NCBI GenBank assembly: GCA_026023565.1
Contig: JAPETS010000009.1
Location: forward strand, 310,001-374,000
DNA: 64,000 nucleotides
Source of the DNA: Cirrosporium novae-zelandiae
Lineage: Eukaryota
Direction of reading: 5' to 3'
Below the pieces are notes generated by a model. It ran no database searches, was not told where the DNA came from, and saw only the letters and a list, made by a program, of their open reading frames with translations. The position numbers and the translations under genes were made by a program. Shown here piece after piece: positions 26,785-34,739 of this stretch; the stretch's first letter is position 1, and each line of letters starts with the position of its first letter.

Positions 26785-27749
26785 ATGGGCAAAAGGCAAG
26801 TACCCGCCTTTCGTTGCCTGTTCGTCCCTTCGCCATTTGAGATCTCTTCTCGGCGCTCTGCGTAAATGAACGTTGCCACAGTCAAGATGCTATCTGACAA
26901 GACTATACGACTCATTTTATCCTCACAAACCCCTCCCTTCATACCCCGACACCTGTGACCCATCATGGCCTGGTTTCATTACCTCCGTTGGGGGCCCTGC
27001 TATTGCTACCACTCCTTCATCGGCCTCATTTTCAGAGCACTTGACCGCTTACATAGAGAACCTGAGCAACGTTATAGTCAGTCGAAACTCAACCCTCAAC
27101 AACTCGAAGAGCTTCAAAAGTCAACCCATTTCGACAAGAAGGAGCTCCAGCAATGGTATAAAGGTCATCGTTTAATCCCTCTTCATCTGTATTTACTTCG
27201 CTAACCTTCCATCTACAATCAGGCTTCCTTAAAGACTGCCCCTCGGGAACTCTTACCAAAGAAGAATTCCAGAAGATCTACCGACAATTCTTTCCTTATG
27301 GCGATCCATCCTCGTTCGCGAACTACGTCTTCAATGTCTTCGATGAGGATAATAGTGGAACGATCGATTTCAAGGAATTCATTTGCGCATTGAGTGTTAC
27401 AAGCCGAGGGAAAATGGAGGATAAACTTGATTGGGCATTCCAACTGTACGATATTGATGGCGACGGGAAGATTAGTTATGATGAGATGCTGGCGATTGTC
27501 GAGGCAATATACAAAATGGTTAGCTTACCCACTTTTGGGAGATTCTTCCGCTAACATCCTGGACTGTAGGTCGGCTCAATGGTCAAACTCCCTGAAGATG
27601 AAGACACCCCTGAAAAACGGGTAACCAAAATCTTTCGGATGATGGATAAGGATCGGAATGGCAGTCTCGACATGAACGAATTCAAAGAGGGATCGAAGCG
27701 TGATGAGACAATTGTTTCGGCCTTATCATTATATGATGGGCTTGTCTAA
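26785..27749 (+). CDS. ncs-1: Neuronal calcium sensor / frequenin (EF-hand, N-myristoylated), 4 exons
   Basis: Exons 26785-26795, 27078-27163, 27223-27518, 27570-27749 give MGKSQSKL...[16 protein letters not shown]...[13 protein letters not shown]...[13 protein letters not shown]...[10 protein letters not shown]. Confidence 0.95.
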
Positions 27750-28346
27750 CCCGAAGCCCTATGTCAGGAAGAAACTGCGCTTTTGCCTCAGCCTAAGCAT
27801 CTTTGGAAATGAAAGGATACTTCCTCATCATGTGCCCACGCTCGATACGTATGTTTTTGTAACGATGATACAAAGATTCGGATGGTTTGAGATAGATCCG
27901 TCTGTCATACTGGATAAGGAACCTCGGAGGCTTCATGTGAAGGGATATTTGCCATCCCTTTTGTTTGTCCGGCGCACGCACTGAGAAGGAGTCTTGTATC
28001 CCCAAGGAATTGTGTTTATAAAGGATCGGTCAGAATCTGATCGGTCAAAGAATTCAAATACCCGAGTCTTTTCGAAATGAAACATGTATTTTTCCCCGTT
28101 TTAAGCTTATTCCTGGTGATGAATTTCCATCTTCATTTCTATTCCGTGCCGCTATGTTTGCATGCCCTAGTGCCAGCTATAAGCACTGATGTTTTCCCTT
28201 TATGGTTCCTGGTTATTTCGTTCAGTTGACTCGAGTTAAATATTATGAGTCTCCGTTTTACTAATAAAGGTGAAGTATTCTCCAAGATAAATTTCCACTT
28301 TTTGCTAGTTACAACCAGAGTGCGCTAAAGCTACAGGTCGCCGTTA

Positions 28347-29458
28347 TTAGATACTTTCAAAAGACGATCCTCCAGCTGCCTTGTCGATATCCATACATTC
28401 CTGCAGACCGCACATCATGAACAATTCTTTTGGCCCTCCTTGGCTAAAGTCAACTTTGCCTTCCGTTTTCAATGATTTCAAGGCGGTCATGGTTGATCTA
28501 TATACTGCTTCCAATGCCACACTTGGACAGATCATAAGTTTGAATCCAAGCTCTTTCGCCTCTTCTGCGGTTATCATCGGAGTAACCCCGCCGGGAACCA
28601 TATTTAAAACTACAGGCACACTCATCGATTCGCATACCTTCCTCCCCTCTTCTTTAGATCTGATTCCTTCCTGTGACGGTAGAGTTAATAAGGGATCAGG
28701 GCGGAAATCGAGGTAGTACAAACCAGAAATACCACATCAGCTCCAGCATCGACTGCGCTTTGAAGACGCTTCACGGCTGCATCAAAACCTAATGATGCAA
28801 GAGCATCCGTCCTAGCAATAATAACTATTCTTGACCTAATCTTGTTTCTAGCTGCGGTTGCCGCTTTGATCCGTGATATGTATACCTGCTCGTCGACCAG
28901 TTCTTTGCCGAGTAAGTGGCCACATCTTTTCGTTTGAACCTGATCTTCGAGATGCAAAGCTGCTACTCCCGCTCGAGCATATTGAATGACAGTTCGTGCC
29001 ACCATGTTGGGCCCTAAGACGATAAGCTTGAACCCTTGAGTATGAGAATCGGTTTCTGACCTCCATATCCGGTGTCTGCATCGGCAATAACAGGAACCGT
29101 AGTATCCAAGCTAGCGATCATTTCTGCATTCTCCTTCATATCATTTAGAGTTGTCAGGCCCAAATCTGCCCAGCCGAGTCTTGACATTGATGTCCCACTA
29201 ATTTTTTCGGGTTAACACTTGGGAAAGACAAATAGAAATCTTCAACCTTACGCTCCAGTCTAATAGTTTATTATTAGCGTCAGGCAAGGATAATAGCTAT
29301 GGCACAAGTGGATTTACCATGTATATGGCATCGAACCCTACATTCAATGCCAACCGGGCAGTCAATCCGTCATAAACACCTGGACAGACGATAATTTTGT
29401 TGGGTTCTTGTAACATTTGACGCAGCCTTTCGGCGCCTAATAGTGATATGGAAGTCAT
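28347..29458 (-). CDS. Isocitrate lyase/PEP mutase superfamily lyase (2,3-dimethylmalate lyase / OAH-class), multi-exon
   Basis: PGVYDGLTAR, YMTGAGTS (via 8-nt exon 29252-29259), IADADTGYG, LEDQ..KRCGH, IARTD, NMVPGGVTP. Confidence 0.9.
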
Positions 29459-30109
29459 GATGGTTTATGCTTTCCGAATAATAGGTGCGGAAGATTCAGT
29501 TGAGACTTTTTAGGTTGATGTCCTTACGATATATATACCTTGCGTATTGAATGCAGGGAAGTATTTTTACTTCCAAACTTCCTATCGAAATTCAAGTCTA
29601 GGAGATTCATGGAGAGGTAATCACTATTTATCATTCAAATCACAATTAGCAGGAGATTAAGAATAAAAAGGTTAGAATGTGACGTCCTCTCAATTGTCTT
29701 ATGAGTGCTACCAATCCAAGAGCCCCTAATTCCTCTTATTATGCAGCAACGCGGCGTTAAGCCATCTTCTCCGCGCGAGTGGCCCTGGCATGCCTGGTTT
29801 ACCCTACAAAACGCCGCCCGTAAGCCATCCGCTGGCATTTAAACTGCCGAAGGTCGATGAAACATGCAAATTCGCTTGCAGCTAAACCCAATTATGGTAA
29901 CTGTTCACCTAGACTTTACTTATCACCGGTTTCTGCATGTACTTTACTATGAGCAGTAGCAGCTTACAAGTGATTCGTTGAGATCATGGATGATGACTGC
30001 ATGATTCTTTTTCTTGACATAGTCTACATCTATAAAGATATCGATGTGGCTACCGAGCTATATCACATTATCATTCCTTTAAGATGAACTTTCTTTTGGA
30101 AAATATACT

Positions 30110-32980
30110 ATGTCACATAGCGAGTTGACCGTACACATTACTCAAAGTGCTGATCCGGGCAATGACTGTCTTGCAAAAGACATTTGTTCCTGTCTCCACG
30201 ATGTTAGGGGGGTATCTATCAACGCTCAGACAACTGCTAGTGATGGTAAGATGTCCAGTTTTCATCAAGCTCAAAAATTGACATTCGCAGGCATCAGCGT
30301 CATCGTCAATGAAGCCACTAGCTTCGTCGATATTTTCCAACAATTTATATCAGCCTTGATCAGCATAGAAAAGTCTGCCGAAGCAGATTCCCTTGGGAAT
30401 GTCCTGGCCATGGCCCTTGACAAGAAGTCGTTTCGCGGCCTTCAACTAGACCCCAAGCAGAGTTTGACGGACACCGACCTCGAAGAGCTTCGGTTCCGTA
30501 TAGATGCTTGGTTGGAAGCTTTGAACTCGGTAGAAAGAGCACGGCACTGTCTCACTCCTTTGGCCAGTCGAGCGGCGGGGAGAAGACCCATGACTATTAC
30601 GGAAAAGATATTTGCACATCATAGCATTTTACCGCTACCAGAATATGGCCTTAAGCCTGGGGATATGGTTCAAACATCTGTGGATTGGATCATTGCTTCA
30701 GAGGTCTCTTATGCGGTTAGTTGAAGCCGTTTTCGGTGGTCCTGGAGGAGTCCGCTCACAATTTCTAGGGTATGGTCAAAACACTTGATGAGATTGGCAA
30801 CCCTGGTATCTGGCGAAATGATCGTTTATATATTGCCGGGGACCATCTTATGGACCCAAGGATTTAGTGAGTTAACCTTTGCGTTGAAATGTAATTTGGA
30901 ACTGTTGCGTTACTGATGCAAGATTAAAGCAATGTCCCGAAAGTCCAAGAACTTATCAAAGCTGCCGAAAAGGCCAAACAACAATATAGGATGACTGATT
31001 ATATGGGCCTCAACGTGTGTCGACATGTGGAGAACTCTACTATCATGTAACTGATGAATTTTAGTATACTATCATGCACACGGAATTTGTCCGACAACGT
31101 GCCCAGCCGGGAATGCTCGTCATCGGTGCTGACTCCCACACCTGTTCAGCAGGTGCCGTGAGCTGTGTATCTATTGGTCTTGGGGCTGCAGATGTAGCAA
31201 TGGCCACAGTGACTGGATCGACCTTCTTCAAGGTACCAGAGTGCATCAACGTCCAATTTATCGGGAAGCCTGGCCCAGGTATCGGTGGCAAGGATACAAT
31301 CCTATATATTCTGAGTGAATTCAAGCGCAACACAGTCGCTGCCGAAAGAATCGTTGAGTTTTCGGGCCCTGGGACGAAATACTTGTCGATAGATGCGAGG
31401 TTTGCCATATCAAATATGTGCACCGTGAGTCTACCCGTGCTGGCTGCTGTGTTTTGCTAACATGGACAAGGAATTTGGAGCTATAACCGGCCTATTTGTT
31501 CCGGATATAATTACGAAAGGATATATTGATTCTCGCAAAGTCAAACGGATGAAGGCCGAAACAACATACTTTCTACCAGACGAAGATGCACAATATGCTA
31601 CGAGGTTTGAAATTGATCTCAGCAAAGTCCAATCCTTCATGGCAGTTTATCCAAGGCCAGATGATGTATGCCCCGTCAGCTCAAAAGCTGGTACCAAGCT
31701 CGACGGCGTTTTCATTGGGGCATGCACAACTGCAGAAGAAGACCTCATCCTTGGAGCGCTTGTCTTGAAAGTCGGGCTTAAGAACGGTTTCCAGCTGGCA
31801 AAGGGGAAAAGGCACGTTGTCCCAGGATCTCTGCCAATTGCAAGCCGGCTTGAAGACTTGGGACTTGCGGATGTGTATCGAGAAGCTGGGTTTACTCAAG
31901 GTGTTCCAGGGTGCAGCTTTTGCGTTGGGATGGGAGCAGACAGGGCACAGCCAGATGAAGTTTGGCTTTCCAGTCAGAATCGCAATTTCAAGAATAGAAT
32001 GGGAAAAGGTGAGGATCACACAGTATTGATACAATCATATATTTACTGATATTGCCTAGGCTCTTTTGGGAACATAACATCTGCCGCCGCAGTCGCTGCG
32101 TCTTCGTTTAGCATGGAAATCACGGACCCCACGCCATTTCTGTCGCAAATTGATCCTAACGATCTGAATCAATACTTTGGGACAAGCAATTTCTTACAAA
32201 CTCATCTGGAGACCGAGGTATTGCCTGTCAAAGAACCAAATTTTTCTATTCGTGCTAGCCAAGATGTCAAGGAAGACAAGTCTCCAAGGCCATCAATCCG
32301 CACCAGGTCTCAGAAAATCATCAAGGGCAAGATCCAAGTATTGGATGACTTCATAGATACAGATGCTGTAGGTCCACACCTCCGCATTTCATCTCTCAAG
32401 GCTAATTGCCATACTCTAGCTCGCTCCAATTGAATTCCTTGTAGGTGCCAAGTCAGACGAAGACATCGGGACCCACTGTCTTCAACATACACACCCGGAA
32501 TTTGTTTCAAAGGTCAAAGATGGATTCAATATTATAGTTGCCGGAAAGGCATTTGGATGTGGAAGTTCCCGGGAGGAAGCCGTCAGAGCTCTGAAAGGCT
32601 GTGGCGTTCAACTCGTCATCGCCCGCTCGTTTTCTTTCATCTTCGGTCGCAACATGCCTACGCTTGGACTTTTAGGCATAGTCATGTCTGACGATGATTT
32701 CTACAAAGCTGCAACCTCTAGATCGGAAATTTCTGTGGATGTGGCGGGTCGTATTCTTGTTGTGGGTGAGGAGACATTTTCATTTCAGCTGGATCCCATG
32801 GAGATTGGTTTGATTGAGAATAAGGGTGTTAGTGAAGCGTACAAGAGATTTGGCAAGAATGTCTTTGAGAAGATAGCAAATCTGGAAACGGGAAGTGAAA
32901 GCCTAGGGGCTCGATTGAAGATGGGAAATGCGATGCTGGCAACAAACAAGCCAGGGGTCGTAGAGAAGCTGGAATGGTAG
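30110..32980 (+). CDS. Aconitase-family Fe-S dehydratase (fused LeuC+LeuD / homoaconitase-like) with N-terminal extension, multi-exon
   Basis: [45 protein letters not shown]. Swivel domain DFIDTD and [15 protein letters not shown]. Confidence 0.9.
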
Positions 32981-33311: not shown

Positions 33312-34279
33312 ATGGCATCTCTACTCCCAGCTACAGCTTCTCGAGCTTTGCTACGATCCTTTGTGCCAGCTGTGCGCACAGCTCCTCGAGCTGCAAGGGT
33401 GTTTTCTCGACCTTCGTTATCCGCATTCCGAACTTTTGCGTCTGCGACAAGGGAGCAGCCAAGGTAACCTGGATGCATCAAACCGCAACAATGGAGAAAT
33501 GATTGCTCATATAATTGCTTGCAGATTGAGAATTGGAACGACTTGCCCTGACTTTCATGCAAAGACGACCCAGGGTGATGTCGAATTTCACAAATTCATC
33601 GGAGACAAATGGGCTATTCTCTTTTCGCATCCGGTAACGCTCGGTTTCTGTCGTCGAGATTAGTAATTTCTACTAATTTCTACTGCCAATACAGGCAGAC
33701 TTCACTCCTGTCTGCACGACGGAACTCGGTGCCTTTGCTAATTTGAAGGACGAGTTCGAGAAGAGAAATGTCAAGATGATTGGTTTGGTTCGTTACTTAC
33801 TTCAGTTAGCTCCCGTCCTACATTCTGTGCTGATTATCTTCCATCAGAGCGCCAACGACCTTGGCTCCCATGACCAGTGGATCAAAGACATCAACGAGAC
33901 TTCCAACGCAAATCTCCAATTCCCCATCATCGCCGATGCAGACCGAAACGTCGCCTTCCTATACGACATGATCGCAGAAGAGGATCTCAAGAAGCCAGAA
34001 ATTGCATTCACGATTCGATCTGTGTTTATCATTGACCCGGCTAAGAAGATCAGACTGATGATGTCTTACCCCGCCTCAACCGGAAGAAACGCCGCTGAGG
34101 TCCTAAGGGTGATTGACGCTCTGCAGCTCGCCGATGAGAAGGGCATCGCAACTCCCGTTAACTGGACGGCGGGTGAAGACGTAATTGTTCCCCCTTCAGT
34201 CTCGACTGCTGATGCCAGGAAGAAATTCGGCGACAGCGTTAGGGAAATCAAGCCATACCTTCGATACACAAAAGTTTAA
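33312..34279 (+). CDS. PRX1: Mitochondrial 1-Cys peroxiredoxin (Prx6 family), multi-exon
   Basis: Arg/Ala/Ser-rich presequence, LFSHP-ADFTPVCTTELG, YPASTGRN, KPYLRYT. Confidence 0.92.
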
Positions 34280-34739
34280 TTTAGATGCCAATCTGCCAAT
34301 CTTCTTGTTCTCATCATGTGACGAGACTGTAAATAGGATCTAATGAACAAGCTCGTATGATTGCAACAGACGATGGCTAAGTTGAAATGAACTGCATTAT
34401 TGAAGATGTGCAGATTGAAATGCAGGAACTAATAATACCTAGGAAATCAATCAAGATTAGCGTGACTTATTATTAAAAGGATGTTTCGACAACCCTAGGT
34501 CGCGGATATTGTGTTTGTGGAATGTGGTCTCGAACTGCCATAAAGAGCTTAGTGGCTGTGGTTTCAATTTCTTCTTCACATTCTCTTGGCCCTCCGTTCA
34601 TATTTTCTTGGCTCTTTATCTTTCTCTTGGCTACTTGAGTAGTGTGCATCGCCTTCGACTATGGCATTTTTGAAAGATAGACAATGGGAGGACGTGATTG
34701 TTCAAAAAAGGCTTCATTATATTTTCATTCGACTAACAA

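Follow-up and report, generated by a model that had tools for sequence, protein, structure and literature searches.

We find that Cirrosporium novae-zelandiae carries a head-to-head gene pair, conserved among fungi, for an ICL/PEP-mutase-family C-C lyase and a fused LeuC-LeuD-type [4Fe-4S] hydratase. On balance we predict that the two genes work as a CoA-independent module that breaks down or scavenges branched C4-C7 dicarboxylates. It lies in a stretch of 64,000 nt, here called the window (assembly GCA_026023565.1, contig JAPETS010000009.1, positions 310,001 to 374,000, forward strand). The initial annotation had placed a lyase (minus strand, start 29458) and a fused hydratase (plus strand, start 30110) about 650 bp apart, and this arrangement is borne out: both genes are intact and the ATG-to-ATG gap is 651 bp. 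The features, in window coordinates, are as follows.

28347..29458, minus strand: gene for an ICL/PEP-mutase-family C-C lyase, 299 aa (OAH-like class, xGG group, DMML paralogue)
29458-29318, 29259-29252, 29197-29061, 29013-28724 and 28670-28347, minus strand: lyase exons
28916..28930, minus strand: KRCGH catalytic loop, K124-H128
28512..28547, minus strand: GFKLMICPSVAL, with Pro241 (28526-28524) at the position of the OAH Ser and DMML Pro
29459..30109, no strand: divergent intergenic region, 651 bp, presumed bidirectional promoter
29748-29766 and 29810-29829 (span 29748..29829), plus strand: 19-20-bp motif in two imperfect copies, each ending TAAGCCATC
30110..32980, plus strand: gene for a fused LeuC-LeuD-type [4Fe-4S] hydratase, start ATG 30110, stop 32980
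30110-30245, 30291-30715, 30769-30866 and 30930-31014, plus strand: hydratase exons, first four
31065-31424, 31471-32008, 32060-32367 and 32420-32980, plus strand: hydratase exons, last four
30110..30580, plus strand: N-terminal domain of about 150 residues, mainly helical, conserved in fungal members
31723..31923, plus strand: cluster-binding cysteines C468 (31723), C531 (31912) and C534 (31921)
32435..32446, plus strand: small-subunit specificity loop FLVG, containing V673
32561..32575, plus strand: GSSRE motif, carrying the Ser that is catalytic in aconitase-family enzymes

The lyase gene runs from its ATG at 29458 to a stop at 28347 in five exons, and its introns are all GT-AG. The deposited protein P0122 is a 100% match to the queried lyase exon and is identical to our model when the exon-4 donor is set at 28723. 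The hydratase is deposited as P0001 with 851 aa. That model keeps an in-frame 45-nt GT-AG segment (30246-30290), which scores low confidence in the fold model and is probably an intron; with it removed the protein has 836 aa.

The lyase belongs to the ICL/PEP-mutase family and has the KRCGH loop. Its best solved match (E 4.6e-99) is 3fa3, which we take to be the Aspergillus niger 2,3-dimethylmalate lyase (DMML), An07g08390, with which it shares the loop, the marker Pro and the lack of a methylisocitrate-type Arg. Oxaloacetate acetylhydrolase (OAH; 3lye, OahA) shares its class and fold family with the window lyase (E 4.3e-92). The diagnostic residue of OAH is the Ser of IFSF. Pro241 falls in the same alignment column as the Pro in IIIFPFA of 3fa3 and the Ser in IMIFSFA of 3lye, so the initial annotation was right that Pro replaces the OAH Ser; given this replacement and a different clade, we reject an identity as OAH. 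Its assignment of the enzyme to the 2,3-dimethylmalate-lyase type did not hold: Pro stands at the marker position in 75 of 128 aligned lyases, so it marks only what is not OAH. The window lyase scores 334 bits against 3fa3, where a true DMML orthologue scores 571, and it falls outside the DMML/OAH clade (UFBoot 98), which includes P0308; these two results exclude a DMML orthologue. It also has xGG where DMML has MVE[HN]G and, unlike DMML, reads SMSRLGWAD, not AASVHGQAD, and is linked to a hydratase. Judged by these comparisons it is a paralogue of the solved DMML, not an orthologue, and the pair therefore gives the A. niger enzyme no direct pathway. A broken DMML-like copy is present on a different contig of the same genome.

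The hydratase contains Pfam Aconitase and Aconitase_C domains within a single chain, in LeuC-then-LeuD order, with the three cluster cysteines and the DH, DSH, NRNF and GSSR motifs of LeuCD-type members of the aconitase superfamily; the Ser of GSSR(E) is catalytic in that family. Its N-terminal domain has no Pfam match and no structural look-alike scoring above the threshold used outside its own family. The closest solved structures are subunits of two methanogen enzymes from M. jannaschii, the IPM/citramalate isomerase (4kp1, 3vba) and the homoaconitase (4kp2, 2pkp). The IPMI-type neutral loop residue and the cluster and catalytic residues are kept, but identity is about 30%, the chain is fused, the motifs read ASE, TIMHTE and CTT[AT]EE, and scores are below all NCBIfam cut-offs (TIGR02086: 254 bits, cut-off 410; NF001614: 293 bits, cut-off 385). 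The family-specific CTT[AT]EE stands where LeuC and aconitases have CTN[GS]R, and Ser197 replaces their Gln or His. The substrate may differ as well, because these motifs depart from those of LeuC and aconitases. The protein is not Leu1, Lys4, Aco1 or Aco2, which for Leu1 and Lys4 is what the initial annotation required: it forms a separate clade (UFBoot 100) at 24-28% identity, and all four housekeeping genes, named by motif and tree, are encoded elsewhere in the genome.

Both enzymes lack the Arg that binds a third carboxylate, which supports a dicarboxylic substrate. In PrpB this Arg lies five residues after the conserved Pro. In the window lyase Glu246, directly after GFKLMICPSVAL, occupies the position (aligned with the Arg of 9hra), so the lyase lacks this PrpB feature; the Arg occurs in 2 of the 128 aligned lyases. 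In the hydratase, V673 aligns with the Val of IPM/citramalate isomerase (3vba) and not with the Arg of homoaconitase (2pkp). All 59 fungal members that could be parsed, out of 62 examined, have a neutral loop residue and none has a basic one; the nearest bacterial relatives have His there in 66 of 68 parsed. A neutral residue is a sign of archaeal-type IPM/citramalate isomerase, by a rule drawn from methanogen enzymes that is not general, because canonical LeuD has Lys at the position.

We predict that the fused enzyme would hydrate an (alkyl)maleate, or isomerise a 3-alkylmalate, to a (2R)-2-alkylmalate, and that the lyase would cleave the C2-C3 bond to give a 2-oxoacid and acetate or propionate. 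The most likely single case, put forward tentatively, is citraconate to (R)-citramalate to pyruvate and acetate; dimethylmaleate to dimethylmalate to pyruvate and propionate is improbable. Joint transcription, a cytosolic location, the substrate class and the direction of flux are what we infer for the pair. Of the substrates named in the initial annotation, alkylmaleates and alkylmalates would suit the active sites of both enzymes as well as the gene neighbourhoods in bacteria, and methylcitrate-like compounds are disfavoured. The pair could still act on a tricarboxylate or citrate analogue (a methylaconitate or methylisocitrate stereoisomer, a trans-aconitate-derived compound, or an alkyl- or homo-citrate) and so form a side or repair branch of the citrate or methylcitrate cycles. 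The unusual motifs of the hydratase, the annotation of A. niger An15g07730 as an aconitate hydratase, and the PrpF, MmgE/PrpD and tripartite tricarboxylate transporter genes in operons of the nearest lyases speak for this. It is nonetheless rather unlikely, given the missing basic loop residue and Arg, a lyase score of at most 170 bits to methylisocitrate lyases against 334 to DMML, and a genome already equipped with Aco1, Aco2 and Lys4 as well as a PrpD and two genes of ICL type.

The pairing is conserved among fungi, which supports the initial annotation. A divergent lyase is present in 5/5 same-clade fungal loci (4 distinct) that have at least 700 bases upstream of the hydratase. The flanking genes differ among these loci, and the nearest named proteins span several ascomycete classes. 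Rhinocladiella mackenziei has adjacent locus tags for the pair (Z518_04204/04205), and both proteins are apparently present in two Daldinia species. Outside the window's clade, five eukaryotic loci extend at least 2.4 kb upstream, and four of them lack a lyase. The seven flanking ORFs of the window have no match in any of 160 loci of hydratase relatives, which removes from the module the neighbouring genes for a 1-Cys peroxiredoxin, an EF-hand (NCS-1-like) protein and a P450. Head-to-head gene pairs can last without a common function, and few fungal loci are in the sample, so the two genes might be neighbours by descent that share no substrate, the lyase being a weak oxaloacetate hydrolase or having another role. 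We regard this as a slim prospect: the pair is kept across ascomycete classes while its flanks change, and the same two families are linked in bacteria and at a fungal locus (L026) where a paralogous hydratase has an MFS transporter and a more distantly related lyase beside it.

In the tree, the fungal lyases sampled cluster with seven proteobacterial lyases (UFBoot 100), all seven of which sit in lyase-leuC-leuD operons. In these GntR-lyase-leuC-leuD-(prpF/prpD)-transporter operons of the nearest bacterial lyases the same two families are adjacent. LeuC is near the lyase in 15 of 17 bacterial loci fetched (12 of 14 among those chosen independently of LeuC); PrpF is found in 4 of the 17 and MmgE/PrpD in 6, and tripartite tricarboxylate transporters are also carried. 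These PrpF, PrpD and transporter genes are also compatible with tricarboxylates. The LeuC of the proteobacterial operons groups with canonical LeuC/Leu1, apart from the fungal hydratase, and because it is another lineage the lyase-LeuCD pairing probably arose more than once. Among the hydratase's own bacterial relatives a lyase was found near 1 of 139 loci, 6.9 kb away and at 34% identity, and we rejected it as their partner. A LysW-type lysine role for these relatives was also rejected (LysX below cut-off in 5/5 genomes).

Nicotinate fermentation in Eubacterium barkeri uses the enzyme set Mii/DmdAB/Dml, in which Mii is of the PrpF family and a LeuCD-type Fe-S hydratase is linked to an ICL-family lyase. 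The bacterial lyase loci with LeuC, PrpF and PrpD resemble this set. By analogy, the window pair may carry out the same maleate-type hydration followed by C-C cleavage. Unlike the E. barkeri enzymes, the window hydratase is fungal, fused in a single chain and extended by an N-terminal domain, and there are two genes only: none of the 52 window ORFs scanned is a nicotinate-pathway gene or Mii (PrpF family). The single PrpF gene of the genome lies elsewhere, on contig C45, where its neighbours are unrelated.

In A. niger, the adjacent tags An15g07720 and An15g07730 are annotated as an OAH-class protein and a cytosolic aconitate hydratase, and both genes are expressed without a special inducer. 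Judged by tags and annotation, they are probable orthologues of the window pair. Their expression co-varies with r = 0.78 on only 4 strains; they appear in expression tables, and the text available with these does not discuss their function or pairing. According to the accessible part of PMC6862759, A. niger can form citramalate by means of a CimA-like synthase and secretes a compound resembling citraconate. The parts available of PMC10512348 and PMC8283699 mention no genes that would link the pair to gallate or gentisate catabolism. Our literature searches, mostly of open-access papers available in part, found no description of the fungal pair or the bacterial operon, nor did they turn up an activity measurement for a member of either enzyme group.

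The same chemistry could serve as an overflow valve, in which the cell's own 2-/3-isopropylmalate or citramalate, perhaps a bulkier substrate, is drawn from Leu/Ile-type synthases, isomerised and cleaved to a 2-oxoacid and acetate. Of the 160 loci, 26 have a LeuA-family synthase near the hydratase relative, with the two genes head to head in the eukaryotic locus L036; three Myxococcota genomes have the fused protein as sole aconitase-family gene besides a ~900-aa aconitase; the An15 genes are both expressed without a special inducer; and no transporter or regulator adjoins the window pair. Such a valve nevertheless seems unlikely. Other fungal loci have a Zn-cluster-type regulator beside the hydratase (L021, L077) or the transporter of L026, as in catabolic clusters, and a KSB1 genome has the fused protein plus a separate LeuC-like gene adjoining a LeuB-like gene. 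A. fumigatus acoC, possibly of the same family, is barely expressed according to the available text of PMC3556520.

The gene layout leads us to presume one promoter common to both genes. The two copies ending TAAGCCATC flank the centre of the intergenic region, one per side, and are candidate regulator sites. The repeat pattern was built from these same two copies, so its shuffle figure is circular, and the repeat is absent from the other species' loci. No promoter motif is common to the five intergenic regions compared, which share just scattered 7-8-mers, without a shuffle control.

The hydratase-lyase logic is already known from bacteria, and the fungal fused version is a variant of it. Moulds have extra cytosolic "aconitases" and non-OAH "OAH-class" lyases without an assigned role, and the conserved pairing lets these two orphan families be tested together as successive steps of one reaction, for which An15g07720/An15g07730 are ready targets in A. 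niger. If citraconate or citramalate is consumed, this would bear on yields in organic-acid engineering and on fungal use of branched dicarboxylates. More speculatively, filamentous ascomycetes may have an undescribed CoA-independent pathway for citraconate/(R)-citramalate (or alkylmaleate) that came together independently of its bacterial counterpart, combining a lyase related to the ones in proteobacterial lyase-LeuCD operons with a hydratase from another LeuCD lineage, a fused one. In that case the lyase linked to the hydratase would retain the older motif and kind of partner, and DMML and oxalate-forming OAH would be later offshoots gone from the module, so that DMML would have no known pathway because it left. 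If true, the module would offer a point of departure for tracing how oxalate-forming OAH evolved.

Intron-rich fungal DNA fills the window, and the spliced models of the two genes match the deposited proteins (P0122 for the lyase, P0001 for the hydratase). The initial annotation described a head-to-head layout with a gap of about 650 bp; the start codons are indeed 651 bp apart. The features are:

29458-28347, minus strand: lyase gene (ICL/PEP-mutase family), 299 aa, five exons, GT-AG splicing
30110-32980, plus strand: hydratase gene (fused LeuCD type), 851 aa by GT-AG splicing
30246-30290, plus strand: 45-nt segment, in frame and close to the start of the hydratase, kept in the deposited protein

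Given the intron signals and low model confidence of the 45-nt segment, the true hydratase product may be 836 aa. The divergent region contains two imperfect 19-20-bp copies ending TAAGCCATC (29748-29829), either side of its centre, with a short near-palindrome between them (29784-29797). These copies are absent from the loci of other species compared.

The gene pair proves to be conserved. Among 80 metagenome loci, 21 were classed as eukaryotic, and eight of these belong to the window's clade. The lyase is divergent and 0.5-1.0 kb away in all five same-clade loci with at least 700 bases upstream (four distinct; one shows just the first 35 lyase residues, at a contig edge), and the other three have too little upstream DNA to judge pairing. 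The nearest named proteins of the paired loci span different ascomycete classes. Among the matches listed, the two tags of Rhinocladiella mackenziei are neighbours (Z518_04204/04205), and in two Daldinia species both proteins have an equal longest-contig figure. F. multimorphosa, C. immunda, C. truncatum and A. floccosus have both protein types with non-adjacent tags or on different contigs; because it concerns the best 120 matches alone and paralogues are possible in these genomes, this is no test of pairing, and it gives pairing no support either. None of seven flanking window ORFs matches any of the loci compared. The genes that flank the pair in the window, encoding an EF-hand protein (about 27000-27750; presumably NCS-1/frequenin-like) and a 1-Cys peroxiredoxin (33313-34280), are not beside it at the other loci examined. 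Functional coupling of some kind between lyase and hydratase is very probable, and passive linkage of the two genes is correspondingly improbable.

Outside the window's clade, five eukaryotic loci extend far enough upstream, and a lyase is present at one of them. The hydratase there (L026:3671-9894) is a fungal paralogue whose N-terminus is longer; its tandem partner is a more distant ICL-family lyase, and an MFS transporter follows downstream. This pairs the two families a second time. Two other fungal loci (L021 and L077) share a fungal Zn-cluster-type transcription factor, downstream of and convergent with the hydratase, which is a candidate regulator; no such factor was noted next to the window pair. 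An intronless eukaryotic hydratase-family member is in head-to-head orientation with a gene resembling isopropylmalate synthase (L036:1-2784), which suggests a biosynthetic role in that lineage.

The initial annotation matched the lyase to the 2,3-dimethylmalate lyase (DMML) type from a Pro. The residue is present: Pro241 aligns with Pro of A. niger DMML (PDB 3fa3) and Ser of oxaloacetate acetylhydrolase (OAH; PDB 3lye). Pro occurs at this site in 75 of 128 aligned lyases and therefore says "not OAH" and nothing more. Against 3fa3 a true DMML orthologue (P0308) scores 571 bits and the window lyase 334; the latter scores 311 bits against OAH. DMML and OAH form one clade (UFBoot 98) with an MVE[HN]G-type motif, and the window lyase and every hydratase-linked lyase of its group fall outside it and carry xGG. 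DMML orthology is ruled out by the bit scores and this placement, and sequence comparison identifies the lyase as a DMML paralogue. The hydratase-linked lyases group weakly (UFBoot 61, FastTree 0.84-0.95) and may form a grade. In the host genome this paralogue is intact, whereas the DMML-clade copy (G000:C60, about 119690-120750; L008) is broken by two in-frame TAA stops and frame shifts.

The position five residues beyond the Pro is Glu in the lyase; in methylisocitrate lyase it is an Arg that structural work links to tricarboxylate binding. This Glu argues against a tricarboxylate substrate, and the pair is unlikely to be a branch of tricarboxylate metabolism. The small-subunit loop of the hydratase contains Val, as in the methanogen isomerase, at the position of an Arg in homoaconitase that presumably binds the third carboxylate. 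The loop residue is neutral in all 59 parsed fungal members (62 examined) and His in the nearest bacterial relatives. It hints at most at a preference away from third-carboxylate binding, because canonical LeuD carries Lys there.

The hydratase is a fifth aconitase-family gene of the genome; a genome search gave four others, which motif and tree evidence assigns to Leu1, Aco2, Lys4 and Aco1, and these share 24-28% large-subunit core identity with it. In an IQ-TREE phylogeny (36 of 81 sequences), the hydratase shares a clade (UFBoot 100) with eukaryotic relatives, fungal and otherwise, and with fused LeuCD proteins of bacteria; these four and canonical LeuC lie outside it, and the dehydratase is thus no orthologue of Leu1 or Lys4, the possibility that would have undermined the initial annotation. 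It misses all NCBIfam cut-offs, with archaeal-type LeuC/HacA and LeuD as top models, and its closest solved relatives are subunits of two M. jannaschii enzymes, the homoaconitase and the isopropylmalate/citramalate isomerase. Across 25 aligned members there is little or no variation in the cluster cysteines or in the motifs DH, DSH, NRNF and GSSR, and ASE, TI[ML]HTE and CTT[AT]EE are peculiar to the family. A look-alike search with the helical N-terminal domain of about 150 residues found no match outside the family.

The nearest bacterial hydratase relatives (38-46% identity) have a lyase nearby in one of 139 cases; of the metabolic genes that could be identified beside them, one for a LeuA-family synthase is the commonest (26/160 loci). 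The fused LeuCD family occurs in Myxococcota, KSB1, Planctomycetota and others (L093-L172; G001, G003, G005), often adjoining a LeuA-family synthase of short length. Three Myxococcota genomes have no aconitase-family gene other than the fused one and an aconitase of about 900 aa, and no LysX in them reaches the cut-off.

The nearest bacterial lyase relatives, sampled from plasmid records, have LeuC within 7-10 kb at 15 of 17 loci (12/14 among those not chosen for it), PrpF at four and MmgE/PrpD at six; GntR regulators and transporters for organic acids accompany most of them. Seven bacterial lyases form a group with the fungal ones (UFBoot 100), and every one of the seven belongs to a lyase-leuC-leuD operon; the LeuC of these operons, where placed in the tree, falls with canonical LeuC/Leu1, apart from the fungal hydratase. 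Lyases of this kind recur next to LeuCD-type hydratases of separate lineages, good evidence that the two enzymes share a pathway. A recurring proteobacterial operon combines GntR, lyase-leuC-leuD, prpF or prpD and a transporter (L196, L197, L217-L221); no description of it was found in the literature searched.

Likened to the pair by tags and annotation alone, An15g07720 and An15g07730 of A. niger are listed as an OAH-class protein (PMC6320622) and a cytosolic aconitate hydratase (PMC6862759). Both are expressed (r = 0.78 over four strains, too few to count), and the literature searched has them in expression tables only. PMC3556520 mentions A. fumigatus AcoC, an aconitase-like gene that was "not studied further", and PMC6231085 does no more than cite the DMML paper in the passages searched. 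PMC6862759 also describes citramalate formation in A. niger via a CimA-like synthase and release of a citraconate-like compound. Leu1 could account for citramalate dehydration there. It is improbable that the pair serves as an overflow for isopropylmalate or citramalate of the fungus's own making.

Enzymes of the LeuCD type turn alkylmaleates into (2R)-alkylmalates and back, and lyases of the DMML class split the latter into a 2-oxoacid and a carboxylate. In E. barkeri nicotinate fermentation the order is Mii (PrpF family), DmdAB, Dml. Membership as DMML, OAH, PrpB, Leu1, Lys4 or part of a nicotinate cluster failed for the window genes; in working, a LeuCD-type hydratase with an ICL-family lyase would resemble DmdAB/Dml. 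The simplest reading, which we hold somewhat probable by this analogy, is that the same two steps occur in the fungal cytosol: the hydratase would convert an alkylmaleate to a (2R)-alkylmalate, which the lyase would cleave to a 2-oxoacid and a carboxylate. The genome has one PrpF-family isomerase gene (L226, G000:C45:300581-301705), unlinked to the pair, that could supply citraconate from itaconate if Mii-like. Our best single guess for the route is citraconate to (R)-citramalate to pyruvate and acetate. The pair is real and conserved, and as a module it is apparently so far undescribed.
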